From positions 1,830,001-1,862,000 of the forward strand of contig NZ_CP021983.2 of NCBI RefSeq assembly GCF_002075285.3: a stretch of 32,000 bases of DNA, given 5' to 3'. Below, piece by piece: positions 8,554 through 20,695 of this stretch. Source of the DNA: Halomicronema hongdechloris C2206. GTDB taxonomy: Bacteria > Cyanobacteriota > Cyanobacteriia > Phormidesmidales > Phormidesmidaceae. Each line of letters begins with the position of its first letter. The first letter of the stretch is position 1. A program made the translations under genes and the position numbers. Under the pieces are notes generated by a model. That model did no database searches and was not told the DNA's origin. It was given only the letters and a program-made list of their open reading frames with translations.

Positions 8554-9138
8554 TTAGTCGCGTTGAATTTTGTGAAACATCTCCTCAACCGTCAATTGCC
8601 ATTGGGAAAACGTCGGTGAAACAACCGTGTCATCTTGATTAAATACGGTTTCCGTATACGTGCCCTCAACCATTGCCAACACTGTCACGCGACCTTCTTG
8701 AGGATCAACAATCCAATATTCCGGGATGCCTCGCCATTCGTACTGATTGCGCTTGTCAAAATAGTCGCGGCGGCGGCTTTCCGCTCCGGAGCTGACCACT
8801 TCCACCACCAGCAGTGGTGGAGCCATCTCCAACGTAATTGCAGACTGCCCCAGGGCTTGTAATTGCTCTAGGTGCTCTGGTCGCAGCACGGTGAGATCCG
8901 GAAAGCGATTCTTGGGCTGTCCCAGCACTTCAAGGGCAAGCTGATGCGTTCTGACCCGTTGAAATCCAACAATGTCTGAAAAGGCGCGATCGAGCGCACG
9001 CGAGATTAAGACATTCTCATCCGATTCCGGCGGCACCTCGATTAAATCCCCATAAGTCAGCTCATACCGTCTATCTGTCCCGTCATCGTAGGCGAGATAG
9101 TCAGCAAACGTCACAATTTTCAGGTTGGCTTGAGTCAA
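8554..9138 (-). CDS. Uma2 (DUF820) family restriction-endonuclease-like protein
   Basis: 194 aa with the motifs PDLTVL..., LLVVEVVSSG and DYFDKRNQYEWRGIPEYWIVDP, which are typical of the Uma2 PD-(D/E)XK-like family. Confidence 0.85.
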   Translation of the reverse strand: MTQANLKIVTFADYLAYDDGTDRRYELTYGDLIEVPPESDENVLISRALDRAFSDIVGFQRVRTHQLALEVLGQPKNRFPDLTVLRPEHLEQLQALGQSAITLEMAPPLLVVEVVSSGAESRRRDYFDKRNQYEWRGIPEYWIVDPQEGRVTVLAMVEGTYTETVFNQDDTVVSPTFSQWQLTVEEMFHKIQRD

Positions 9139-9274
9139 GGAAACAACCTACATAACGCCTTCAACTAGATTGTAGTGTGAGCCCTAACTGAACAGTGGCC
9201 AGTACGTGAGGGAGCGATCGCCCTTCAAGAATGGCTGTTTTTGGATGATGAAGCGGAGGGATGCGATCATTCTA

Positions 9275-9439
9275 GACGATACCTACATGGCCGTCGGCAG
9301 TGAGGCCTATGCCGCCGCCCTATCGGTTTACAGCTACGCCAAGGCCAATAATAGTGGGGCGGGGCTAGATACGGCGGTGAGGGATTTGGGCATCCGGTTT
9401 GCCGGTCAGGGGAGACGGCGGCCTGCAGTGGAGGCCTAG
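9275..9439 (+). pseudogene. 3' fragment of an orf157 paralogue (last ~54 codons only)
   Basis: DDTYMAVGSEAYAAALSVYSYAKANNSGAGLDTAVRDLGIRFAGQGRRRPAVEA* aligns with residues ~102-157 of the intact gene at 19781-20254. It is joined at the CATTCTA|GACGATACC junction. Confidence 0.75.
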
Positions 9440-9504
9440 GAGAGGCGTTGTGTCCTCTGACGATAGGGTAAAATTCTCCTGACAATTAACTCAACAGCCC
9501 CGCC

Positions 9505-9543
9505 GAGACCGTTGCTGTGTTGAGCAGTAACGGTCTTTGTTTT
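9505..9543 (+). terminator. Conserved hairpin plus T-tract downstream of the orf157 fragment
   Basis: GAGACCGTTGCTG-TGTTGAG-CAGTAACGGTCT followed by TTGTTTTG. The same structure occurs at 11567-11605 and 20343-20384. Confidence 0.5.
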
Positions 9544-9720
9544 GCCGGTTACGATACCACTCCCGTCATTCCCGAAGCAGCGGGAGTCCAGATGTTGAGG
9601 AACTGTGCCTATCCTCAGTCAGCTATTTACCTAGACGCTAGTCTTCCCTATTTAAGGCTTGTCAGGTCAACTTTTCGCGTGCTTTCTCAAGATGGCAGCT
9701 CAATCACTTAACCTGGGCGG

Positions 9721-10374
9721 CTAAAGATTTTCCACGGCATCGGCATAACTATACACTTCGATTCCCAATGCCGCTGCTACAGGCAAGGCGCGATCGTCCA
9801 CCATGGGTGAAATCACTAGCTTGCGGCTAACGGGTCGTTGGTGGTGCTTTTGATAAAAGGTCGTCTTGCGATCGCAGGTATACATATCTGCCTTACTCAG
9901 GGAGGACTTGATCTCACAAATAAGCACGTCTCCGTTTTTGATAATGATGTCTAACTCCACCTGATCGGGCCGACCAAATACCTCGCCTGTATCGTCAAAA
10001 TCGTTAATATTCAACACCTGCACCCCGAAGGACTCTTCTAGGATGCCCTTAAGGGCATTACGGAAACTTGCTTCAGAATAGAGCCCCCAGCGGGAACCCA
10101 ACGCCCCGATGGTACTGTCATGACGCTGATCATGACGCTTCAACTCTGCTAAGACGTCTCGATTATGCTGGTGTTGTTCATGCCACTGGCGCGTGTTGTC
10201 TTCTCTATCGCGCTGCAGTTCTGCTAAGACACGGTCAAACCGGCTTTCGGTGTCGACTTTGCCAGCATAGTAGTCAGACACTGTCCTCAGCACAAAATCC
10301 CTGATGGCTGGATCGTTGGCGATCAAGTCGGGGAGGATGTCTTGCAGGGTCTGTTTCAGCTCGGCACTGGCCAT
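9721..10374 (-). CDS. DUF3782-type protein with a C-terminal PD-(D/E)XK-like nuclease core
   Basis: 217 aa. The N-terminus is helical and charged. The C-terminus reads RPDQVELDIIIKNGDVLICEIKSS, a D...E-x-K arrangement. Confidence 0.75.
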   Translation of the reverse strand: MASAELKQTLQDILPDLIANDPAIRDFVLRTVSDYYAGKVDTESRFDRVLAELQRDREDNTRQWHEQHQHNRDVLAELKRHDQRHDSTIGALGSRWGLYSEASFRNALKGILEESFGVQVLNINDFDDTGEVFGRPDQVELDIIIKNGDVLICEIKSSLSKADMYTCDRKTTFYQKHHQRPVSRKLVISPMVDDRALPVAAALGIEVYSYADAVENL

Positions 10375-10460: not shown

Positions 10461-11147
10461 CTACCCATCGTCAGGGTCAACACTGAGGGCTCTCAGCCGT
10501 TCGGCCAATCGGGCCGAGCGTTGGCGCTCCTGGTGCAACAGTTCTGCCTGGGTCGGCAGTAGATCGCCCGTAGCCGTGACCCACCGCAGCCAAACGGCAT
10601 CCACAGTCTGGTAGCAGCCTTGCCAACGCACTAATCCTAAGCCCAGCTGTTGGCTGGCAAGGACTCCAGCGTCATTGAGGGTTAAAGGCTCGTAGTAGCC
10701 ACCTACCAGGCGAAACCCGGCCCATTCTTGCGGATTAAATGGATCAAACCAGAAATACTCAGGTACTCTTACTTGCTCGGCATACACCTGCTTTTTCCTG
10801 GTTTTATCATCGACAGCTGTGCTGTCTGATAGGAGCTCGATGACAACGTCTGGGCCTTTGCCCTCTTCCCACACCACCCAGCTTTTGCGTTCTCCTTTGG
10901 GAACGCCTAGGACCACGAATACATCCGGTCCGATGAAATCCTGATGACGAACTTGGGCCAGGCTGTAGTAGAGAAACATGTTGCCGCCTACGTACCCATC
11001 CTGTCGCCCGGCTAACCAAGGGTATAGGGTCTCAATCAGGAGATCCGATTGCAGCTTATGGCGTTGGGTCTCCATGGGGACACCGTCGTCGCAGGGGAGG
11101 TCATGCTGAGTGGGGGGGAGGGCGCTATCGAGGGGATGGCTGACCAT
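10461..11147 (-). CDS. Uma2 (DUF820) family endonuclease-like protein with a C-terminal coiled tail
   Basis: 228 aa with GPDVFVVLGV, PDVVIELLSDST and KKQVYAEQVRVPEYFWFDP. The C-terminus LPTQAELLHQERQRSARLAERLRALSVDP is a common tail in cyanobacterial Uma2 proteins. Confidence 0.85.
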   Translation of the reverse strand: MVSHPLDSALPPTQHDLPCDDGVPMETQRHKLQSDLLIETLYPWLAGRQDGYVGGNMFLYYSLAQVRHQDFIGPDVFVVLGVPKGERKSWVVWEEGKGPDVVIELLSDSTAVDDKTRKKQVYAEQVRVPEYFWFDPFNPQEWAGFRLVGGYYEPLTLNDAGVLASQQLGLGLVRWQGCYQTVDAVWLRWVTATGDLLPTQAELLHQERQRSARLAERLRALSVDPDDG

Positions 11148-11307
11148 GGGGTGAGCTTGATGGCAATGGGTGGTGTGCTTTCAGGGTAACTTGGATGCAG
11201 TGAGAAACATCAGTACCAGCAAAGTCCACCGTCGCTGACGGGATAGTCAATCAGTGGCATCTCTTTGACCAGAGTGTGTGCATCTGATTTAAGCCCTGGG
11301 CATTCTA

Positions 11308-11478
11308 GACGATACCTACATGGCCGTCGGTAGTGAGGCCTACGCCGCCGCCCTATAGGTTTATAACTACGCCAAGGCCAATCATCGGGGGGCGGGGCTG
11401 GATACGGCGGTGAAGGATCTGGGCCTGCGGTTTGCCCGTCGGGGTAGAGGGAAGTCTGCGGTGGAAGACCAGCCCTAG
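11308..11478 (+). pseudogene. Second 3' fragment of an orf157 paralogue, with an internal stop
   Basis: It has the same CATTCTA|GACGATACC junction as the 9275 copy. The reading DDTYMAVGSEAYAAAL*VYNYAKANHRGAGLDTAVKDLGLRFARRGRGKSAVEDQP* contains an in-frame TAG. Confidence 0.75.
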
Positions 11479-11566
11479 GAGAGTCGTTGCGCCCTCTCGC
11501 CGGGCCAACCGTCAGCGTGAGGATGGAGCAAAATTCTCCTGACAATTAACTGAATAGCGTTTCTCC

Positions 11567-11605
11567 GAGACAGTTGCTGTGTTGAGCAGTAACGGTCTTT
11601 GTTTT
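11567..11605 (+). terminator. Conserved hairpin plus T-tract (copy 2)
   Basis: GAGACAGTTGCTG-TGTTGAG-CAGTAACGGTCT followed by TTGTTTT. There is one stem mismatch relative to copy 1. Confidence 0.45.
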
Positions 11606-11779
11606 GCCGGTTATCGATACGAAGTTTCCGGCTCCCCTTCTCACGCTCTGGAAGTGAAGATTATGAAAGTGGAATGCCCTCAACAATTTGCTGTCCTCTG
11701 CCACAGGATAACACTACATTCAGTTTCTAGATAGAATGGGGATTAGTTTCCGATCTGGCAGATAGAAGGGTAACTCCAA

Positions 11780-12343
11780 ATGGTACAGGCACCATCTAAA
11801 CTACTGACTTTAGCAGAGTTCTTACGCTTACCAGAGACGAAACCCGCAAGTGAATACATCGATGGTCAAATTGTTCAAAAACCGATGCCCCAAGGGAAAC
11901 ATAGTGCGATTCAGGGGGAGCTTGTCGCTGCTATCAATGGGGTCGTTAAATCTAAGCGTATTGCTCGTACATTTCCTGAGCTGCGCTGTACCTTTGGTGA
12001 TCGTTCAATTGTCCCTGACATTGTAGTGTTTCTCTGGAACCGAATTCCTCGTGATGAAAATGGGGAGGTTGCCAACACGTTTCCTGCTACGCCAGATTGG
12101 ACAATTGAAATCCTATCTCCTGATCAAAGCCAGACAAAGGTAACGAAGAATATTCTTCACTGTCTGCGGCATGGAACCCAAATGGGTTGGTTAATCGATC
12201 CGGATGAGAAAACCGTGTTCGTCTACCGTCCAAAACAGGAACCTGACGTATTGGATCAACCAGATGAAGTTATTCCTGTCCCGTCGTTTGCAATTGATTT
12301 ACAGCTTACAATCGAAGACTTGTTTGCTTTTTTGTTGGAGTAA
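11780..12343 (+). CDS. Uma2 (DUF820) family endonuclease-like protein
   Basis: 187 aa with VPDIVVF, PDWTIEILSPDQSQTKVTKNILHCLRHGTQMGWLIDPDEKTVFVY. Confidence 0.85.
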   Translation: MVQAPSKLLTLAEFLRLPETKPASEYIDGQIVQKPMPQGKHSAIQGELVAAINGVVKSKRIARTFPELRCTFGDRSIVPDIVVFLWNRIPRDENGEVANTFPATPDWTIEILSPDQSQTKVTKNILHCLRHGTQMGWLIDPDEKTVFVYRPKQEPDVLDQPDEVIPVPSFAIDLQLTIEDLFAFLLE

Positions 12344-13040: not shown

Positions 13041-13277
13041 CTAAGACTGAGTTATGGTCTTAGCGTTATGAAAAGGCGCAATAGCAAATTTAACCCCAAA
13101 CGCAGAATGCTGAAGGTTGAAGAATGTGATTTGCTGTATCAATAAAGCCTGAGTCGCATAATACATTGCATAGTGAGCACGAGAAACACAGGCTCGATAG
13201 CGCTTATTTTCTGAAAGCAATTGAGACGTTTCTAAATCCTCTCCAGCCAGATTCAGAAGTCGAGAAACGCTACTCAT
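13041..13277 (-). CDS. HEPN-domain protein (toxin partner of MNT), apparently C-terminally short
   Basis: MSSVSRLLNLAGEDLETSQLLSENKRYRACVSRAHYAMYYATQALL matches the first HEPN helices. Its ATG (13277-13275) overlaps the MNT stop as ATGA. It has only ~78 codons, against the ~120-135 usual for this family. Confidence 0.65.
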   Translation of the reverse strand: MSSVSRLLNLAGEDLETSQLLSENKRYRACVSRAHYAMYYATQALLIQQITFFNLQHSAFGVKFAIAPFHNAKTITQS

Positions 13278-13681
13278 ACTAAGATGCCTTCTCGACGGAC
13301 ATTCCAAAGTAGTGGAGAATTACGATAAAGAAAATCATTATGAGCTATTGGCATCACGGAAATCAGTTCATCATAGTCAAGCAATATAGCTAAACCAGCA
13401 TCCGCCATGCGAAAAATTTCATCACCGTGGGAAATCGTTTCATCTCTGAGCACCACCAACACATCTACATCTGATTCCTCAGTTTCCTCATGACGAGCAA
13501 CCGAACCATACAGCACTAAACTGGCTAACCGCTTGCCATAGAGTGCAGTCAGCTTCTGCTTAAATTCCCGTAAAAGCTGCTTAATTTTAGGATTGAGAGT
13601 ATCAGCGTCCTCAATGGTCGGAAGGTCACTTACTTGACAATCGGTAGCCTGGTCCGTGGGCTGATGATTTGAAGCAACCAT
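13274..13681 (-). CDS. Minimal nucleotidyltransferase (MNT) antitoxin-type protein
   Basis: 135 aa with the nucleotidyltransferase signature LYGSVARHEETEESDVDVLVVL. It is translationally coupled to the HEPN ORF. Confidence 0.85.
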   Translation of the reverse strand: MVASNHQPTDQATDCQVSDLPTIEDADTLNPKIKQLLREFKQKLTALYGKRLASLVLYGSVARHEETEESDVDVLVVLRDETISHGDEIFRMADAGLAILLDYDELISVMPIAHNDFLYRNSPLLWNVRREGILV

Positions 13682-13805: not shown

Positions 13806-13947
13806 GTTCAAGACGACCCAGTGCCTGTTTAAACAAGGCTGGCTTTGTTTAAAGACGAAGCAGTTCCTGTTGAAGACGAACTTATTGCTGTGGTTTTTGA
13901 AATTCCCTCGTTACTGGGGAGATGGCCTGATGGAGCGTTGGGCTGTA
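13806..13947 (+). repeat. Copy A of a dispersed repeat element (1.5 units of the 42-bp motif plus a ~95-nt tail), interrupted by IS630
   Basis: It aligns by eye with 20419-20460 plus 20587-20687. The last 8 nt of the element (GATGCGAT) resume at 15059-15066, after the IS. Confidence 0.6.
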
Positions 13948-15056
13948 AACCTCGTCCAACTTGAGACCTGGAGTTTTAGGCGAACCCAAGGTAGGGTAGA
14001 GACCTGTCCAAGATTCGTTCGCATTCATCATAGCGCTTGCTGGCGATTTATGAAATTGCCCAAGGCGACAGTGCGACTCAAGTGGCCTACCAGAGTCACC
14101 GGAACCCGCAAACGGTGATGGAGTGGGTACATCGCTATAACGCTCACGGCCCTGATGCCTTGACCTACCAGCGCAGTGGAGGTCATCCCCCCCTTTGTCG
14201 GATGAGGTCAAGCGCGGCATAGACCAAACCCTTCGGCATGCGTTGGACGTAGCAGCCACGCCCCCTCAGCAGCGCAGCGAGGAACCGGTTCCCCGCTGGA
14301 CCCTCAAACGCCTCGTGCGGTGGGTGAAAGAGACCTTTGCCATCGACTGCAGTCGAGAGACCTTGCGAAAACTCCTCAAGGAATTAGGCTTTTCCTGGAA
14401 GAAGGCTCGAAAACTGTTGAATAAAGCAAATCCAGAGCAGCGAGTGGCTTTTCTCAAAACGTTGGAGAAGCTATTAGACGACGCCCTGCATGAGCGCTGT
14501 TTGGTGGTGTATCTGGATGAGGCGCATGTCCATCTCGACACCGATGAAGGCTATGGCTGGTCCATTTGCGGTCAGCGGTTCTGGGTTTCTTCCAGTTCCC
14601 TGGCTTAGCGAAGGTCTCCTTTTATGGACTGTATCTCTACAACCTGGGGCAGGTTCGGATTTGGCCCTTCGAGCGGGCGAAACAGGAGAACACCGTCGAG
14701 GTGCTCAAACGATTGCGGGTAGAGTTTCCCGATGTCCCCATTAAACTGGTCTGGGATGGGGCTCCCTATCATCGGGCCAAACTCGTGCGAGAGGCGGCTC
14801 AAACCTTGGACATCGGGCTTGTGCGGTTGTCAGCCTACAGTCCTGATTTTATGCCCGTCGAGCATCTGTGGCACTGGTTGCGGGAGGACGTCACCTATCA
14901 CACGTGTTATGACCAAGAAGCCGATTTAATCGCCCAGGTTGATCGCTTTCAAGCACGGATTAATGCCGACCCGATTGCCCTCGCTGATCGCTTGTGGGTC
15001 AAATCTCATCTGGATCCTAAGGAGGAAAAACTCCGGGTTTCAACCTAGATGAGGTT
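13948..15056 (+). mobile_element. IS630-family insertion sequence (~1.1 kb) with TA target duplication
   Basis: The 30-nt terminal inverted repeats AACCTCGTCCAACTTGAGACCTGGAGTTTT (13948-13977) and the reverse complement of 15027-15056 (AACCTCATCTAGGTTGAAACCCGGAGTTTT) match at 24/30. TA flanks both ends (13946-13947, 15057-15058). A paralogous uninterrupted site ...GGCTGTAGATGCGAT lies at 20681-20695. Confidence 0.85.
13960..15048 (+). pseudogene. IS630/Tc1-mariner-type DDE transposase, disrupted
   Basis: The HTH part reads LLAIYEIAQGDSATQVAYQSHRNPQTVMEWVHRYNAHGPDAL. The DDE triad context is YLDEAHVHLD..., VWDGAPYHRA..., PDFMPVEHLWHWLRE. Reading requires frame changes near ~14032, at the C-run 14187-14193 and near ~14595. 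No clean start codon lies inside the element. Confidence 0.8.
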
Positions 15057-15252
15057 TAGATGCGATAGCCCTGCGGGGACTTCCTGTACGAATACGGTAC
15101 TCATTGTCAGAACCTTTCATCTTGACCACCCCATCAGGGCGTGGATCTTCGGCAAGTTGCTCAATCTTCTTAGCGATGCGATTGTAAACGTCATCAGGCA
15201 AAGCATCTAGCTGTTTTTGCACAGCTTTCGGTGTGATGATGGTGTAGGTCAT
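15040..15252 (-). pseudogene. RelE/ParE-family toxin, C-terminally truncated by the repeat element and IS630
   Basis: MTYTIITPKAVQKQLDALPDDVYNRIAKKIEQLAEDPRPDGVVKMKGSDNEYRIRTG is a typical RelE/ParE N-terminal two-thirds. The last ~9 codons (from ~15066 down) are read out of the inserted repeat element and the IS630 end. Confidence 0.7.
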
Positions 15253-15488
15253 GCCGATCGCTCTGCCCGTTTTGCCTTGTATTCATCAAAGGTCATGTAA
15301 TCCCCTGCTTCGTAGTCAGCACGGGCAGCCTGAATTTCAGCAATGTCCTCGGTCGAATCTTCATCATCGGGGAATAACTCGGCTTCTAGAAGTTCCCAAA
15401 GCTGATGTTTTTCAGCAATGTCTAGTGAGGAAATTGCTTGCAGCAATGATTGAAATGAGATGTCTACTTTCACAATATTCTCAGCCAT
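15249..15488 (-). CDS. Putative antitoxin of the relE/parE-like module
   Basis: 79-aa acidic protein (DDEDSTEDIAEIQAARADYEAGDYMTFDEYKAKR). Its stop overlaps the relE-like ATG as ATGA (15249-15252). Confidence 0.6.
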   Translation of the reverse strand: MAENIVKVDISFQSLLQAISSLDIAEKHQLWELLEAELFPDDEDSTEDIAEIQAARADYEAGDYMTFDEYKAKRAERSA

Positions 15489-15630
15489 TAGAACTTGCCT
15501 CTGTTTTTATTTTTGCATCGTGTATTTTCAATTGCTCCTGTGCCCATTCTCGCAGTTGCTCATCGAAGTCATAAGCCGCTTTGTTGCGCAGCGGTTTGAT
15601 CGTTTTGGGGGGAAGCATGATTTTAATCAT
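15481..15630 (-). CDS. 49-codon ORF, likely a relic of a NACHT-family gene 3' end
   Basis: Hand translation gives MIKIMLPPKTIKPLRNKAAYDFDEQLREWAQEQLKIHDAKIKTEASSNG*. The stretch DEQLREWAQEQLK is identical to the NACHT protein tail. Its ATG overlaps the vapC stop (ATGA), and its stop overlaps the antitoxin ATG (ATGGCTGA). It falls below the ORF-track length cutoff. Confidence 0.4.
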   Translation of the reverse strand: MIKIMLPPKTIKPLRNKAAYDFDEQLREWAQEQLKIHDAKIKTEASSNG

Positions 15631-16040
15631 GGTTGCAACCAGTTTTGAATTTGCAATTCAGGAATTCGTTGAAAATGACTGAGGTTATTGGTGATTACAC
15701 ATAATCCTTGAGCCAAAGCAGTAGAAGCGATTAGGATGTCTGCATCTCCAATCAGTTCACCTCGCTGTCTCAAAAGTGCGTAGATGTCAGAAGCTTTGAT
15801 AATGATTTCATCAGTCAGCAGCAAAATGATATTCACCTCACAGAAGAGATCGAATGCCGCAAGCTGTTTTGTTGCACCTTTTGCTTTTAGTCCACGCAGA
15901 ATCTCATATCGAGTAATGATCGAGAAAGTGAACTGTTCATGAGCGACCAAGTACTCCTGAGCTTTCGGAATCACAACTGGATCCTGGCGCAGGATAGCAG
16001 AGAGAATATCCGTATCCAGAAGTGCAGGTAAAACGGTCAT
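15627..16040 (-). CDS. vapC: PIN-domain ribonuclease toxin VapC
   Basis: 137 aa. LLDTDILS at the N-terminus carries the first acidic PIN residue, GDADILIASTALAQGLCVITNNLSHF the distal ones. There is an ATGA overlap with the upstream antitoxin. Confidence 0.9.
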   Translation of the reverse strand: MTVLPALLDTDILSAILRQDPVVIPKAQEYLVAHEQFTFSIITRYEILRGLKAKGATKQLAAFDLFCEVNIILLLTDEIIIKASDIYALLRQRGELIGDADILIASTALAQGLCVITNNLSHFQRIPELQIQNWLQP

Positions 16041-16276
16041 TGAATCAGTGAATCCTCAAAGAAACTTTGACGCTCTAAAGCAATTTGCTCAACGTCTTGA
16101 ATCTGCTCAGCAGAAAACCCTTCATAAACTTCAGCCGCCAACTGAAGCATTTGCTCTGGTCTTATTTTGGTTTGCGATTTAACAATCAACTGAACTTCCT
16201 GTCCTTCAGATAACTCTGGTACTTTTAATGGACGAAAGATCCCATTCTCATAAACTGCTTCTACAATCTGTTGCAT
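16037..16276 (-). CDS. vapB: VapB-type antitoxin (AF2212/DUF104-like)
   Basis: 79 aa starting MQQIVEAVYENGIFRPLKVPELSEGQEVQLIV, the hallmark N-terminus of this small antitoxin family. It starts 1 nt after the NACHT stop codon. Confidence 0.8.
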   Translation of the reverse strand: MQQIVEAVYENGIFRPLKVPELSEGQEVQLIVKSQTKIRPEQMLQLAAEVYEGFSAEQIQDVEQIALERQSFFEDSLIQ

Positions 16277-16277
16277 A

Positions 16278-18935
16278 TTATTCGACCTCCATTTCTAATT
16301 TTTCATTTTGCATTTTTAATTGCTCCTGTGCCCATTCTCGTAGTTGCTCATCGGGATCGTTGATGACGCGATCGCGCAGCAATTCAAAAGTTTTGGGATG
16401 GATGGAATAATGCTCAAGGAGAGCACGTAGAGCAATTTTACGAGGATTAATCGTTAGTGTCTCTGTGTCAGATTGAAAGGGATCTTCTACTGTAAGATCG
16501 CACAAAAGCTTGAAGATTTCAGGGTTTTCTACACAGCTTTGGATTAATTCTTCTAGTGCAGCTCGTCGAATCAGAGAATCTCTATTATCTTTAGAATGTT
16601 TTTTTAGGATGCATACTGCTTCTGAGAAATTAGAAAAGTATTGCCCTATAATTCGTAGAGCCGAAGTTTTAACTAGTGATTCGTGATCTCGCGTAACAAA
16701 TTCATCTAGCCAGAGCAAGCTATCCTTAGGATCTTTCTGCATTTTCACTATTCTGTCTATTGCTCTTAGTTGGAATTCAATTATAGATACCCAGTAATCT
16801 CCTGGGACTAAACTATATTGAGCTAGTTCTTTGAGGGATTTAATAATGTCTGATTCCGCATCTTTGTAGATGCATCTGTTTCTCGATTCGAGGAAGCAGT
16901 CAGCAGCAAGAATAACACTTAGAAATGAATACTCTTCTTGCCTGTAAGTTTGCCCCAATAGGAAATTTATAGCTTGAACTGCAAAATCGCTACTAATCAT
17001 TAAAATTATAAGTCTTAAAGTTTCATGCCAGGTTTCATCTTGCCAGTGTTGACCGAATATATCATCGCGTAGTTGTTCAAAGGTGAGGGTGTGCTGTTTC
17101 TCGAAGCGATGAACAATTTCAACCGCACAAAAATATTCTAAAAAGGTGCGGTGCATGAAGCCGTAGGTGTCGACTCCGCGATAGCAGAGGATGAAGTTAC
17201 GTTCGCGCAGTTGTTGAATCAGCCGATTGGCTTTTTCGCGGGGTTCACTGAAACCCTGATCGCGCAAATATTTGGTCAAAATGTGGGTGAGGCGATCGCT
17301 ACTAATCAAATTACCCTTCAGCCCCTCTTCCCCTGCCTGCATCTCATAGGCAATCAGGCGCAACATCTCTTGTTTCTCCCGCCGCCCGATCGCATCCATC
17401 GGAATCTGCAATCGCTTGTGATCCACATCCCAGTGGTAGAGCAACACCCGCGCAGCCTGGTCATAGAGGTCGGCGCGATCGCGGGGTAACTCCTGCCGTC
17501 GATTCAGAATTGCCATCATCGTCAGCAGTAGTGGATTGTCTGCCAGGTTGGAGATCGCTTTGGAATTGGCGATCGCATCTTTCAATCGCTGTTTTAGCCG
17601 CACTTTATCGGGATCGCTGCCCATTGATAAGTCATACCAGCGATCGATAAACTCGTGAATCTCGTCGGTATCGAGGGATTGAATTGTGAAGTGACGAAAA
17701 CTGCTGTGCTGAAGGCGATCGGGGTTGTAACCAATGATGCGAGATGTGACCAGCACCTGAGCTTTGGGATATTGCTGGGAAAAGCGAATAATATCGTCAA
17801 TGACGGTCGATTGGGTGGCGCGATCGAACACCTCATCCAGACCATCAAACATCACCAGGGTAGGAGACTCCAGTAAATACTGATGCAGTTGATGTTGATC
17901 AAACTGCCAATCTACACCCCGACCTTGATGGAGAAATTCGAGAAAGTTCGCAGATGGATTGATGGCGAATTCCCGCAACTCAATCAATAACGGTAGTTTC
18001 TCTGTCTTGCCTTCGACCCATTCCAGTGCTAGGTATTGCAGCAGACTCGACTTACCCGATCCTGGATCTCCTAAAATCACCGTCCGTTGCGAATCTGCTA
18101 CCGCTTCTAAAACCTTTCGTGCGGGTTGCTGAAAGTACTCGTGACGATAACGCTCTAAGGCTTCAGGCGATAAATCTGCTGCAAGTTGTCCTTCGGCTTG
18201 CAATTGTCGTTTCAAGTCCAGAGGCAGGTCGTAGCGCATTGGGGGCAAGGCTTCTCGCACCGTTTGCTCAATGAACATTGCCCAGAGCTTGATGGCATCA
18301 ACGCGATCGGTGCTGTCAAGGGTGTATAGCTTCAGATAGCCATAGCTGGACTGCAAACTGGCTCGATAAGTCTCAACATCAAAGCCGGGTGAGAGTTGCG
18401 CGGTATTGCGGGCAATGTCTTCTAGTAGATCGGTTTCAAGCAGCGATCGCAACTCTGGATTCGCTTTAACAATGCCCTTGACCTCATACACATATTCCTT
18501 GCAAATGCCCCGCCAATCAAACTCTTCTAAAGGAAATTGCCATCCAGAAACTTGATATTGTTGTGCCCAGATTTGCTCTAACTGCCCGTAATCAATTTGC
18601 TTACAATCCTTCTCAAAAGCTTTTCCCAGAATGGGGCGCACCGCCTTATCCTGCACAAACTTCTTGATTACTGCTTTGTAGTGATGCTGAATACTGGTTT
18701 CGGGAACGTCGTTAATCTGAAGCTCTTTAATAAATCGCTTGATAAAGTAGCCAACTGCTTCTGCCATCGGTGTTTTCAGTGCTGTGGCATTGAGTCGGCT
18801 GACTCCACTACTCAGGCAATCTTTAAAGAAATCTTGAACATACCCCTCAAGAACAGGCTTACTCAAATCGAGAACCTGCTCTAGCACTAGCTTGCCTAGC
18901 TCTATTCCTGTTGTGGCTGCCACCCATTCCAGCAT
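16278..18935 (-). CDS. NACHT/STAND P-loop NTPase with an unassigned ~285-aa N-terminal domain and a C-terminal HEAT/ARM-like repeat region
   Basis: 885 aa with Walker A ILGDPGSGKSSLLQYLAL and Walker B LVMFDGLDEV, followed by VLVTSR. The C-terminal third is helical-repeat-like (RRAALEELIQ..., ALRALLEHY...). Confidence 0.85.
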   Translation of the reverse strand: MLEWVAATTGIELGKLVLEQVLDLSKPVLEGYVQDFFKDCLSSGVSRLNATALKTPMAEAVGYFIKRFIKELQINDVPETSIQHHYKAVIKKFVQDKAVRPILGKAFEKDCKQIDYGQLEQIWAQQYQVSGWQFPLEEFDWRGICKEYVYEVKGIVKANPELRSLLETDLLEDIARNTAQLSPGFDVETYRASLQSSYGYLKLYTLDSTDRVDAIKLWAMFIEQTVREALPPMRYDLPLDLKRQLQAEGQLAADLSPEALERYRHEYFQQPARKVLEAVADSQRTVILGDPGSGKSSLLQYLALEWVEGKTEKLPLLIELREFAINPSANFLEFLHQGRGVDWQFDQHQLHQYLLESPTLVMFDGLDEVFDRATQSTVIDDIIRFSQQYPKAQVLVTSRIIGYNPDRLQHSSFRHFTIQSLDTDEIHEFIDRWYDLSMGSDPDKVRLKQRLKDAIANSKAISNLADNPLLLTMMAILNRRQELPRDRADLYDQAARVLLYHWDVDHKRLQIPMDAIGRREKQEMLRLIAYEMQAGEEGLKGNLISSDRLTHILTKYLRDQGFSEPREKANRLIQQLRERNFILCYRGVDTYGFMHRTFLEYFCAVEIVHRFEKQHTLTFEQLRDDIFGQHWQDETWHETLRLIILMISSDFAVQAINFLLGQTYRQEEYSFLSVILAADCFLESRNRCIYKDAESDIIKSLKELAQYSLVPGDYWVSIIEFQLRAIDRIVKMQKDPKDSLLWLDEFVTRDHESLVKTSALRIIGQYFSNFSEAVCILKKHSKDNRDSLIRRAALEELIQSCVENPEIFKLLCDLTVEDPFQSDTETLTINPRKIALRALLEHYSIHPKTFELLRDRVINDPDEQLREWAQEQLKMQNEKLEMEVE

Positions 18936-19071: not shown

Positions 19072-19192
19072 GAGTAATCTCTCGATCAGGAGATCCGATT
19101 GCAGGTTATGGTATTGGATTGGGGATACCGTCGTCACAAGGGAGGTCATGCTGGAGTGGGGAGAGGGCGCTATCGAGGGGATGGCTGACCAT
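19072..19192 (-). pseudogene. 5' stub of a Uma2 gene (paralogue of 10461-11147)
   Basis: MVSHPLDSALSPLQHDLPCDDGIPNPIP* compares with MVSHPLDSALPPTQHDLPCDDGVPMETQ in the intact copy. The upstream 88 nt (19193-19280) are near-identical to 11148-11235. Confidence 0.65.
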
Positions 19193-19280
19193 AGGGTGAG
19201 CTTGATGGCAATGGGTGGTGTGCCTTCAGGGTAACTTGGATGCAGTGAGAAACATCAGTACCAGCAAATTCCACCGTCGC

Positions 19281-19574
19281 GGACTGGATGTATCGAGGCT
19301 TCTGGTAACCCGCGCAGGCGGGTTTTGCGTCTGTAGCTGCGGTTTTAACCGCCAAGCTAAACAGTTTTGTCAGTCAAGCAGGGAATGACAGATAACTGTT
19401 TTCCTAGGTTGATTAACCGGATTTCCTATCAATTGTTATGGATCGCGCTTCATTGGCAAGGCGTGATAGACCTCGCTAAGACCGCACTTAGTTTTCTGAG
19501 CCGGAGAGGTCGCCCGGGGAAATTTCGCTTTCCCCGGACCCCTACGACCAGGGCAAACCGTTGCCCTGGACCCT
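19281..19574. mobile_element. ~294-bp MITE-like insertion relative to the paralogous intergenic region at 11236
   Basis: It is absent from the otherwise collinear copy (11148-11310). It is bounded by GGACTGGAT (19281) and GGACGGGAT (19575), against a single TGACGGGAT at 11236. Internal hairpins include CCAGGGCAA-ACCG-TTGCCCTGG and the GGGAATGAC/TTTTGTCAGTCAA motifs shared with 12722-12750 and 13008-13024. Confidence 0.45.
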
Positions 19575-19780
19575 ACGGACGGGATAGTCAATCAGTGGCG
19601 TTGGATCGCGTTGCATCGGTGGGGATGCCAGGGGGATGTTGCTGGCCTCTGGCATTTGCAGCTGAACGCTGCCATCTGGGTTGACGTGGGCCCGGAGTCT
19701 TAAGGTTTGCATGAGAGGGTGTGCATCTGATTTAAGCCCTGGGCATTCTAAGTATGCAGTTTACAAAGGAGCCATAAATC

Positions 19781-20254
19781 ATGGCTAACAATCAAGTCAG
19801 TGCATCGCTGTCCGCCTCTGATCAGGCGGCGGTGCTATCCGCTATTGCCCAGATCAAAGCCAGCATGGACTTTTTAATCGACCTAACGATTCAAGACCGC
19901 AAACAGCTGCCCAAGATGGGCGATAAAAGCCGCGCCTTTGTCGGTCGCGCCCTGGAAGTCGCCACCCAGAATCCCGACTTTTTGCCCCGCTCCTTCGACG
20001 TGGAGGAAATGCGACGGGATGTGGAATTGACAACCGCCATGGAGCCTGTGGTTCTGGCTCTGAAGCAGCTCTATGAACTGGTAGACGATACCTACATGGC
20101 CGTCGGCAGTGAGGCCTATGCCGCCGCCCTATCGGTTTATACCTATGCCAAGGCCAGTGATAAAGGCGCTGGGCTGGATACAGCGATGAAGGATTTGGGC
20201 ATTCGGTTTGCCGGTCAGGGTAGACGGCGGTCTATAGTGGAAGGGCAAGCCTAG
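19781..20254 (+). CDS. Conserved hypothetical protein (orf157), the full-length copy of the family with fragments at 9275 and 11308
   Basis: 157-aa ORF. AAGGAG lies 8 nt upstream of the ATG. It is predicted helical, and I recognise no catalytic motif. Confidence 0.7.
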   Translation: MANNQVSASLSASDQAAVLSAIAQIKASMDFLIDLTIQDRKQLPKMGDKSRAFVGRALEVATQNPDFLPRSFDVEEMRRDVELTTAMEPVVLALKQLYELVDDTYMAVGSEAYAAALSVYTYAKASDKGAGLDTAMKDLGIRFAGQGRRRSIVEGQA

Positions 20255-20342
20255 AAGAGGTGTTGTGTCCTCTCGTCTGGCCAACCGTTAGCATTAGGAG
20301 GAATTGATATAACCCTGACAATTAACTCAATAGTGTTTCCCT

Positions 20343-20384
20343 GAGACCGTTGCTGTGTTAGACAGTGACGGTCTCAGTTTTGTT
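20343..20384 (+). terminator. Conserved hairpin plus T-tract (copy 3) downstream of orf157
   Basis: GAGACCGTTGCTG-TGTTAGA-CAGTGACGGTCTC followed by AGTTTTGTT. The two changes relative to copy 1 keep pairing as G-U wobbles. Confidence 0.5.
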
Positions 20385-20418
20385 AGGCCCCCAGGGCATC
20401 AATCGGGACTCCTTTCAT

Positions 20419-20695
20419 GTTCAAGACGAAATAGTTCCTACTTAAACAAGCCCGACTTTGTTTAAAGACGAAATAGTTCCTACTTAAACAATGCTGACTT
20501 TGTTTAAAGATGAAATAGTTCCTACTTAAACAATGCTGACTTTGTTTAAAGATGAAATAGTTCCTACTTAAACAATGCTGACTTTGTTTAAAGACGAAAT
20601 AGTTCTTGTTGAAGACGAACTTATTGCTGTGGTTTTGAGATTCCCCTCGCTACTGGGGAGATGGCCTGGTGGAGCGTTGGGGCTGTAGATGCGAT
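20419..20695 (+). repeat. Copy B of the dispersed repeat element: 42-bp tandem array (4 full units plus 1 partial) and an uninterrupted tail
   Basis: Units start at 20419, 20461, 20503, 20545 and 20587, a period of exactly 42. Units 3 and 4 are identical. The tail 20600-20695 matches 13865-13947 plus 15057-15066. Confidence 0.9.

Follow-up and report, generated by a model that had tools for sequence, protein, structure and literature searches.

NACHT gene-end fragments and toxin-antitoxin cassettes in Halomicronema hongdechloris and other cyanobacteria

The NACHT locus and its direct repeat

In a 32,000-nucleotide (nt) stretch of the Halomicronema hongdechloris C2206 genome (contig NZ_CP021983.2, positions 1,830,001 to 1,862,000; hereafter the window), a predicted NACHT NTPase gene on the minus strand is followed by two predicted toxin-antitoxin (TA) cassettes and an insertion sequence (IS) of the IS630 family, and a fragment of the 3′ end of the NACHT gene recurs between the two cassettes (Table 1). 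Along the minus strand, the open reading frame (ORF) for the 885-amino-acid (aa) NACHT protein is followed by ORFs for 79, 137, 49, 79 and 70 aa, the last of which extends from 15252 into IS sequence as far as 15040. From vapB to the second toxin gene, these five downstream ORFs are joined by overlaps of 4-8 nt.

Table 1. Coordinates of the NACHT gene, its tail copies, the cassettes and the IS element in the window (aa, amino acids; ORF, open reading frame)
Feature	Positions	Strand	Basis
NNH2-NACHT-HEAT STAND NTPase gene, 885 aa	16278-18935	-	Pfam
Tail core encoding DEQLREWAQEQL, copy 1 of the 36-mer	16318-16353	-	Motif alignment
Post-core extension KMQNEKLEMEVE, then stop	16278-16317	-	Sequence; collinear with the L008 tail-vapB junction
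vapB-type antitoxin gene, AF2212-like, 79 aa	16037-16276	-	PF01954, 7.1e-13
vapC PIN-domain toxin gene, 137 aa	15627-16040	-	Pfam PIN, 3.4e-10
Relic tail, truncated pseudo-copy of the NACHT 3′ end	15530-15617	-	nhmmer match, model positions 23-110
49-codon ORF over the relic	15481-15630	-	ORF list; no Pfam match
Second antitoxin gene (AT79), 79 aa, ParE/RelE partner	15249-15488	-	Recurs with toxin in 17 loci
ParE/RelE-type toxin gene, truncated after YRIRTG	15088-15252	-	tblastn
IS630-family element, frameshifted transposase	13940-15065	+	HTH_33 and DDE_3 domains

The repeat first recognized at this locus is a 36-mer, AATTGCTCCTGTGCCCATTCTCG(C/T)AGTTGCTCATCG, present as two direct copies, at 15530-15565 and at 16318-16353, that agree at 35/36 positions. 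This part of the first-pass annotation was confirmed: a search of the window with up to 3 mismatches returned exactly 2 matches, and none was found in 100 dinucleotide shuffles. The ORF list and Pfam also agree with its placement of the left copy in the 49-codon ORF, of the right copy in the NACHT C-terminus, and of vapBC between them. An ungapped extension gives a repeat of 68 nt (15498-15565 versus 16286-16353; 85% identity; repeat family D9), and with a nucleotide tail profile the left copy can be followed over 15530-15617. The peptide PKTIKPLRNKAAYDFDEQLREWAQEQLK in the left copy corresponds to PKTFELLRDRVINDPDEQLREWAQEQLK in the NACHT gene, and the left copy is evidently a truncated version of approximately the last 45 NACHT codons, hereafter called the relic. 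The octamer TTTTGCAT, which had been reported upstream of each 36-mer, is indeed present at 15511 and 16306, but it lies 19 nt before one 36-mer and 12 nt before the other; relative to the repeat, the two octamers are offset by 7 nt, and their positions within the D9 repeat are not homologous.

The 885-aa protein matches NNH2 (E = 1.6e-58, 197.8 bits) and the NACHT NTPase module that defines bNACHT proteins (PF05729; E = 3.3e-13, 50.2 bits against a cut-off of 26.7), and its HEAT_2 match is borderline (26.7 bits against a cut-off of 27.7). Among curated antiphage families, it has no match above cut-off, only weak domain-level matches in PADLOC and NCBIfam, and an exact-protein look-up found no identical record for the NACHT and antitoxin proteins of the window. 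Comparison with 19 full-length homologues divides the protein into three parts: residues 1-640 (approximately 17023-18935) are conserved, with identities of 56-68% for residues 1-160 and 85-90% for residues 161-640; residues 641-840 (approximately 16450-17022) form a hypervariable repeat region of low G+C content, with 15-32% identity; and the last 55 or so residues (16278-16449) form a conserved tail, with 71% identity for residues 841-880. Hypervariability of the C-terminal 200 residues is what would be expected of a sensor, and the conserved tail is an island between this region and the variable array of cassettes. Within the tail, the 12 aa DEQLREWAQEQL encoded by the core are invariant in every intact copy found.

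The segment that encodes residues 641-840 or so (16450-17022, minus strand) has sharp borders, a G+C content of 0.364 and a third-position G+C content (GC3) of 0.289. Nucleotide homology to nearly all of the approximately 30 loci that cover it ends at 17008-17023 and resumes near 16450, and the segment looks like a swappable sensor-domain cassette between stretches of conserved DNA.

The post-core extension of the NACHT gene contains a GGAGG ribosome-binding site for vapB, whose ATG lies 1 nt past the NACHT stop codon. The VapC protein scores 41 bits against the PIN model (cut-off 23.6) and 72 bits against NCBIfam VapC models, which is under their equivalog cut-offs. Its gene overlaps that of the antitoxin, directly upstream, by 4 nt (16037-16040), and homologues of vapB are found at four related loci (L008, L041, L026 and L035). 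A PIN toxin gene with a small overlapping antitoxin gene upstream is the arrangement of type II VapBC modules, to which 15627-16276 probably belongs. The low G+C content of vapBC had been listed among the features that fit its insertion; the hand counts given for it (23/60 within vapC, 33/60 in the ParE/RelE-type gene) are exact, yet the composition is unremarkable and offers no evidence of foreign origin. At 0.415, the G+C content of vapBC lies at the 21st percentile of 650-nt windows of the stretch, and its tetranucleotide correlation with the rest of the stretch is 0.49, compared with 0.46 ± 0.09 for random segments. The lowest G+C content, 0.364, is that of the adjoining 3′ third of the NACHT gene.

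Behind vapC, the pre-core part of the relic (15566-15617) is strongly diverged, and its core (15530-15565) equals the family consensus at 35/35 aligned positions. The ATG of the relic ORF overlaps the vapC stop codon (ATGA), and its own stop codon overlaps the ATG of the antitoxin gene AT79 (ATGGCTGA); the earlier description of the relic as still wired into the downstream antitoxin start is borne out. The 49-codon ORF is unlikely to be an independent gene, because equivalent relics elsewhere lack a conserved reading frame.

The AT79 protein has no Pfam match and only a weak match to NCBIfam VapB15. Its ParE/RelE-type partner scores 17.9 bits against a cut-off of 23, whereas full-length relatives match ParE_toxin at 1.9e-10 and 41.6 bits, and in tblastn with the 86-aa homologue from L014 it aligns over residues 1-60 only. 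A complete RelE/ParE-fold toxin is not encoded at 15040-15488, where the gene is truncated at the IS630 element. This element, whose imperfect terminal inverted repeats begin near 13939 and 15065 and whose transposase ORFs lie at 14195-14608 and 14566-15048, cuts off the distal end of the array, the ParE/RelE gene being truncated near 15087. The missing C-terminus of the toxin was looked for beyond the element and was not found anywhere in the window; therefore, a deletion accompanied or followed the insertion.

Tail copies in other cyanobacteria

The distribution of the tail was examined by back-translating DEQLREWAQEQL with full codon degeneracy and scanning public genome and metagenome collections. 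The genome collection yielded 24 contigs from 24 different assemblies, 2 of them titled only 'uncultured bacterium' and 22 with cyanobacterial titles, in which Elainellales, Nodosilinea, Leptolyngbyaceae, Microcoleus, Tychonema, Caldora and Myxacorys are the named groups. The metagenome collection yielded 23 further contigs, for a total of 47. No assembly in the genome scan gave more than one locus, and the scans of viral contigs and plasmids returned 0 tail copies. Neither collection scan returned a locus with the arrangement of the window. The motif always lies either at the extreme end of a NACHT homologue of 860-1160 aa, with the common C-terminal pattern NPR..AL..LL.HY.THPKT.ELLRDRA.NDPDEQLREWAQEQL, or in a short downstream open frame, that is, a relic. 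The tail is evidently the conserved 3′ end of a single NACHT orthologue group and not a generic repeat.

A tail profile searched with nhmmer identified 88 copies across 48 sequences, and the copies of any one locus all share a strand. One copy is present in 27 sequences, many of them on short contigs, two copies in 14, three in 1, four in 4, five in 1 and nine in 1. In the 21 sequences that hold 2-9 copies, the median distance between tails is 698 nt, with nearly all distances between 400 and 1437 nt. Successive tails are separated by co-oriented gene pairs of at least 10 recurring TA types: AF2212 with PIN and the 79-aa antitoxin with ParE/RelE, which are the two pairs of the window; HigB with a HigA-like protein; a PIN-like protein with a 70-aa partner; a 72-aa antitoxin with a YafQ/ParE-like toxin; UPF0175 with DUF3368; a 65-aa protein with a PIN-domain protein; DUF2281 with RelE; DUF2283 with a partner; and a HigA-like protein with RelE. 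The post-core extension varies with the cassette that follows, ending in KMEESSNG and a stop codon before the 79-aa antitoxin and in QGGSSEWT and a stop codon before the PIN-like cassette, and the last codons of the tail contain the ribosome-binding site of the first cassette gene and overlap or abut its start codon.

The cassette of a PIN-like protein (147-166 aa) and a 70-aa partner, found in L003, L007, L012, L013, L016, L018, L021, L022, L025, L009 and L045, always directly follows the first tail copy of its locus and never a later one. This first tail is the intact gene end wherever it can be judged, and the start codon of the cassette lies inside the tail end (..GAATGGACTTGA..). Other cassette types are not so confined.

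All of the 42-45 relics keep at most approximately 75 nt before the core, and none contains NACHT or variable-region sequence. Their 5′ ends are scattered over model positions 2-47. The open frame upstream of the core ranges from 4 to 105 codons, and most relic frames run into a stop codon soon after the core; a stop codon lies within 10 codons before the core or inside it in 6/42 relics, and many carry non-synonymous changes. The relics are pseudo-copies in decay. Querying proteins with the 56-aa tail returned 12 relic ORFs, all short, and 0 full-length proteins, which probably reflects word-index limits and gives little information on prevalence. Relic tails P0001-P0012 appear in public data as predicted proteins of 36-94 aa that are unnamed or called 'hypothetical protein' and have no Pfam domain.

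Probable recombination at the tail

Several loci can be compared with the arrangement in the window. The first-pass annotation had suggested a search for an allele in which a NACHT tail abuts the antitoxin gene directly, and such alleles are present in other species: in L014, L028 and L041, and apparently also in L030, L037 and L004, an intact NACHT gene stands directly before the AT79-ParE/RelE pair. Stop and start codons overlap in the sequence TCTAATGGCTGA, as they do behind the relic of the window, and the junction ...GGAGG.AAGTTCTAATGGCTGAGAAT is common to the window relic and to these intact-gene loci, in which the N-terminal part of NACHT is no more than 89% identical to that of the window. 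The other cassette of the window also occurs next to an intact gene: in L008, the gene lies directly before vapBC homologues, with 82.8% identity over 761 nt including the tail. In L025, L001/L042 and L022, other cassettes lie between the gene and the antitoxin-ParE pair, which is the layout of the window with a different first cassette. L041 has the order NACHT, antitoxin-ParE, tail, another pair, tail, vapBC, tail, and therefore the same cassettes occur there in a different order from that in the window.

The junction between the vapC stop codon and the relic is at an identical position in the window, L041 and L026, and therefore vapBC travels with its downstream tail fragment. In L041 and L026, the array stops at the relic behind vapBC, the core of which is decayed; the relic of the window has an equally decayed pre-core part, but its core is pristine and continues into the antitoxin gene.

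A crossover between tails can be mapped in one pair of loci. Over 4.6 kb, L001, from an Elainellales metagenome-assembled genome, is 99.5% identical to the metagenome contig L042, which has 3 extra cassettes (approximately 2.5 kb). Site by site, L001 tracks the first flanking tail of L042 up to 7385 and the second from 7461; therefore, the crossover took place in a 75-nt interval inside a relic tail, which includes the 5′ two-thirds of the core.

The arrays also show polarity. In the 7 arrays with at least 3 tails (25 relics), agreement with the core consensus falls off from proximal to distal relics (within-array permutation: core matches, P = 0.0016; profile score, P = 0.005). This polarity fits the entry of new cassettes beside the gene.

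The NACHT gene of the window is itself mosaic. At nearly all loci, the N-terminal 1.9 kb of the gene are shared with the window at 72-89% identity. L007 alone shares the variable region of the window (86%), and its homology stops exactly at 16318, the 3′ end of the core, past which a different cassette follows. L008 has the N-terminus, tail and vapBC in common with the window, but not the variable region. At L009 6156-6539 (gene strand), a 127-codon frame fuses the NNH2 region directly to the tail (..FYQPALKRFVRDRAINDPDEQLREWAQEQL..); nearly the whole gene has been deleted internally, and the tail and the cassette behind it have been kept.

Taken together, the repeat, the arrays, the shared junctions, the mapped crossover and the greater decay of distal relics are best explained by homologous recombination at the conserved NACHT tail, which would insert, delete and reorder TA cassettes, with vapBC of the window being the proximal and probably newer cassette. 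A probability of roughly 0.7 is assigned to this explanation. Much of the earlier proposal, in which vapBC came in through recombination at a conserved tail of the NACHT family, is retained; the intact-gene loci, L008 and the L001/L042 crossover agree with this proposal, but the compositional argument for it does not stand.

In the proposed model, the 36-mer represents, at the nucleotide level, the core of the final HEAT-like repeat in an NNH2-NACHT-HEAT gene that cyanobacteria carry in single copy, and the codons for DEQLREWAQEQL would provide the longest near-identical DNA common to all alleles and all leftover copies. Each cassette would keep a tail fragment on both sides, and gene-proximal insertion would leave the previous gene end as a truncated relic, giving rise to arrays of the form gene-tail-[TA]-tail-[TA]. 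The array of the window (NACHT-tail, vapBC, relic tail, antitoxin and ParE/RelE, then IS630) would have arisen in this manner. The relic core and its extension are most likely the former working end of the NACHT gene, from a time when the antitoxin-ParE/RelE pair was the first cassette. The vapBC pair, which would have carried its own old downstream tail fragment, may then have joined by a crossover at or near the core; the crossover would have left the imported pre-core part in front of the resident core, and therefore a decayed pre-core would stand beside a pristine core. That vapBC is the newer cassette agrees with the polarity of the arrays and with the truncation of the distal ParE/RelE toxin. 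As for the route, two direct tail copies may recombine, possibly in a RecA-dependent manner, to give a circle with one cassette and one hybrid tail. The circle, or a linear fragment taken up by transformation, would re-enter an intact tail by a single or double crossover, thereby duplicating the tail and pushing the former gene end downstream. It is plausible that the cassettes are read through from the NACHT transcript, because the end of the tail carries the ribosome-binding site and the start junction.

A DNA-level function of the core was first suggested by near-invariant synonymous sites in 20 genes, and this candidate was dropped after a control: over 192 invariant degenerate N-terminal columns in 19 non-redundant genes, the mean major-codon share is 0.69, and that of the core is approximately 0.75. 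A scripted test on a mis-set codon window that partly overlapped the core gave 0.71 (permutation P 0.37). Only the CAA (19/19 genes) and CGA (17/19) codons stand out. The simplest reading is that 12 consecutive invariant aa give the longest run of DNA with at least 90% identity; therefore, the core would be the preferred place for homologous exchange.

An integron-like, site-specific system, in which an unidentified recombinase recognizes the core and captures TA circles at the gene end, would account for the co-oriented, evenly spaced and repeat-punctuated arrays, for the greater decay of distal repeats, for breakpoints at the core and for the unusual uniformity of the CAA and CGA codons. Such a system is nonetheless unlikely. 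No recombinase gene is conserved among the loci: ORF clustering of L001-L024 and the window found only the NACHT gene and the TA cassettes to be shared, and Pfam searches of the array genes and 10 flanking ORFs found no recombinase apart from the IS630-type transposase. When the two tail copies were folded as single-stranded DNA, neither strand gave a hairpin (z from -0.02 to +1.68), and the tail matches no Rfam family. The 5′ ends of the relics vary, and at synonymous sites the core is no more conserved than invariant codons of the N-terminal region.

It is also improbable that the tails are kept mainly as expression modules that provide a ribosome-binding site, translational coupling or a promoter. 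A GGAGG or AGAGG sequence lies approximately 9-10 nt before the antitoxin ATG in both window copies, L014, L004 and L022, and the short overlaps from vapB to the toxin gene would also suit a regulatory role. However, the ribosome-binding site lies in the extension, outside the conserved core; a consensus promoter scan of the tail found 6 sites where 3.5 ± 1.8 were expected, which is no excess; and the relic frames are not conserved. A regulatory role leaves the origin of the copies unexplained and is compatible with recombination at the tail, for which it is no replacement.

The alternative raised in the first-pass annotation, that two neighbouring NACHT loci or a tandem duplication were fused by a deletion that left the tail of the second gene before its TA pair, is quite improbable. 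Internal deletions of the gene do exist, as illustrated by the NNH2 region joined to the tail in L009 and by the L004 gene, which is in pieces. However, the relics all begin no more than approximately 75 nt ahead of the core, with no remnants of NACHT or variable-region sequence, and arrays of 4-9 relics would require as many genes to have been deleted to the same end point. In addition, the genome scan never found more than one locus per assembly, and the difference between L001 and L042 is a tail-to-tail crossover without gene deletion. Finally, chance similarity or a generic dispersed cyanobacterial repeat, for which nothing speaks beyond the other repeat families in the window, can practically be dismissed, because the 36-mer has 2 copies in the window and 0/100 in shuffles, the viral and plasmid scans were empty, and in 47/47 external contigs the motif marks the end of a NACHT gene or belongs to the array behind it.

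Several points weigh against recombination at the tail as formulated above. The polarity test is based on 7 arrays and 25 relics, and a single crossover has been mapped, to a 75-nt interval. Relic identity to the consensus is 91% in the core and 80% in the flank, but relic detection depends on the core, which biases this comparison of decay. The data do not establish a fixed cassette boundary, pre-core similarity being 0.61-0.64 whatever the type of the upstream or downstream cassette. No genome of the same species lacking vapBC was found, and insertion cannot be distinguished here from other tail-mediated rearrangements. Identities between the cassettes of the window and those of other loci roughly follow the NACHT N-terminal identities; therefore, rearrangement is demonstrated, and horizontal movement of cassettes is not.

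A broader version of recombination at the tail can be proposed only tentatively. The 3′ end of the NACHT gene might be a natural capture platform in several orders of filamentous cyanobacteria, where TA modules would be gained proximally at a coding 'handle' of 36-110 nt without an integrase and would be expressed by read-through from NACHT as exchangeable toxin effectors or addiction modules. The handle may also serve as the 3′ anchor for swaps of the hypervariable sensor domain.

Known systems and the surrounding island

In logic, the closest analogues are the orphan-cassette arrays of Rhs and contact-dependent inhibition (CDI) systems, in which a long conserved gene is followed by two-gene modules, each headed by a fragment of the main gene (PMC3482391; Koskiniemi et al. 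2014, PMC3967940). Recombination at the conserved stretch swaps or displaces modules, and displaced modules stay downstream (PMC3482391, PMC3967940). The tail fragment before each module of the NACHT arrays (88 copies; 21 sequences with 2-9) is similar. In rhs and cdiA, however, the repeated homology lies upstream of an in-frame variable toxin domain, and recombination alters the toxic tip of the protein, whereas the NACHT fragment is a gene end that meets a stop codon within 5-20 codons and is followed by separate antitoxin and toxin genes. The main protein is also a predicted cytoplasmic NACHT NTPase and not a secreted toxin, and the modules are free-standing type II TA pairs.

In layout, integron arrays are the closest analogue (PMC8618304, PMC1382264). 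Vibrio superintegrons consist of packed, co-oriented cassettes that are separated by repeats and lie beside a platform gene, and many of these cassettes are TA modules (PMC8618304, PMC1382264). The NACHT arrays share co-orientation throughout, and the greater decay of distal relics (P = 0.0016, 7 arrays) may be a sign of platform-proximal entry. They differ in that an IntI-type integrase and an attC-like palindrome were looked for and not found, and in that the platform gene itself supplies the repeat as a piece of its coding sequence; the varying 5′ ends of this repeat point to general homologous recombination.

The MaOC1 orthocaspase gene of Microcystis aeruginosa is followed by a ParE/ParD-like TA module with direct repeats on both sides, and the MaOC1 protease has been shown to cleave the antitoxin (Klemencic et al. 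2021, PMC7935541). As at the NACHT loci, a cyanobacterial gene of the cell-death or conflict type is followed by a repeat-bracketed TA module of the RelE/ParE type; the differences are that the MaOC1 repeats are identical 152-bp intergenic sequences with internal inverted repeats, that there is one cassette, and that the protein is a caspase homologue. bNACHT proteins are abundant in multicellular cyanobacteria and have a variable sensor part (Kibby et al., bioRxiv 10.1101/2022.07.19.500537); the word 'antitoxin' does not occur in the text of that paper, which accordingly describes no TA cassette array. Searches of the literature on NACHT and TA genes in cyanobacteria, cassette arrays and TA acquisition, whose coverage was incomplete, found no TA arrays punctuated by gene ends, and the MaOC1 locus (PMC7935541) was the only related case. 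The recurrent architecture was thus not found described in the literature searched, and an earlier description elsewhere is possible.

If recombination at the tail is correct, TA modules would be collected and reshuffled at one address, without an integrase, beside an immune-type sensor gene, which would provide a testable mechanism for the origin and turnover of small chromosomal TA 'islets' that lack mobility genes. A conserved gene end between two fast-changing regions, the sensor and the array, would then act as a common recombination anchor, and dozens of short 'hypothetical proteins' would be explained in annotation as gene-end relics. The arrangement also invites the question whether there is cooperation between the NACHT protein and the toxins, for which the Microcystis orthocaspase and its neighbouring antitoxin (PMC7935541) provide a precedent.

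Other repeats and genes were noted in the window around the array. A 136-nt direct repeat (85% identity; 13807-13942 and 20546-20681) brackets an island of the NACHT gene, the TA cassettes and the IS630 element, and its copies may be the boundaries of an insertion of approximately 6.7 kb that is larger than the array; the copy on the right prolongs a series of 42-nt tandem repeats (20420-20629). Just past the IS element, on the array strand, lies a TA-type pair of an MNT nucleotidyltransferase and a HEPN protein (13041-13681, minus strand), with no tail relic detected adjoining it. The wider island around these features includes three Uma2-family endonuclease genes (8554-9138, 10461-11147 and 11780-12343) and a DUF3782/PD-(D/E)XK gene (9721-10374). 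A multi-part repeat with segments that are 73-100% identical occurs at 9268-9613, 11075-11613 and 19080-20389; the third copy, which is the longest, lies directly upstream of the NACHT gene and spans an ORF for 157 aa (19781-20254) that matches nothing in Pfam. On the minus strand, 19306-19329 gives an isolated match to the Rfam CRISPR-DR28 repeat model that falls just short of the gathering score (34.5 bits, with 35 needed; E=0.0023).

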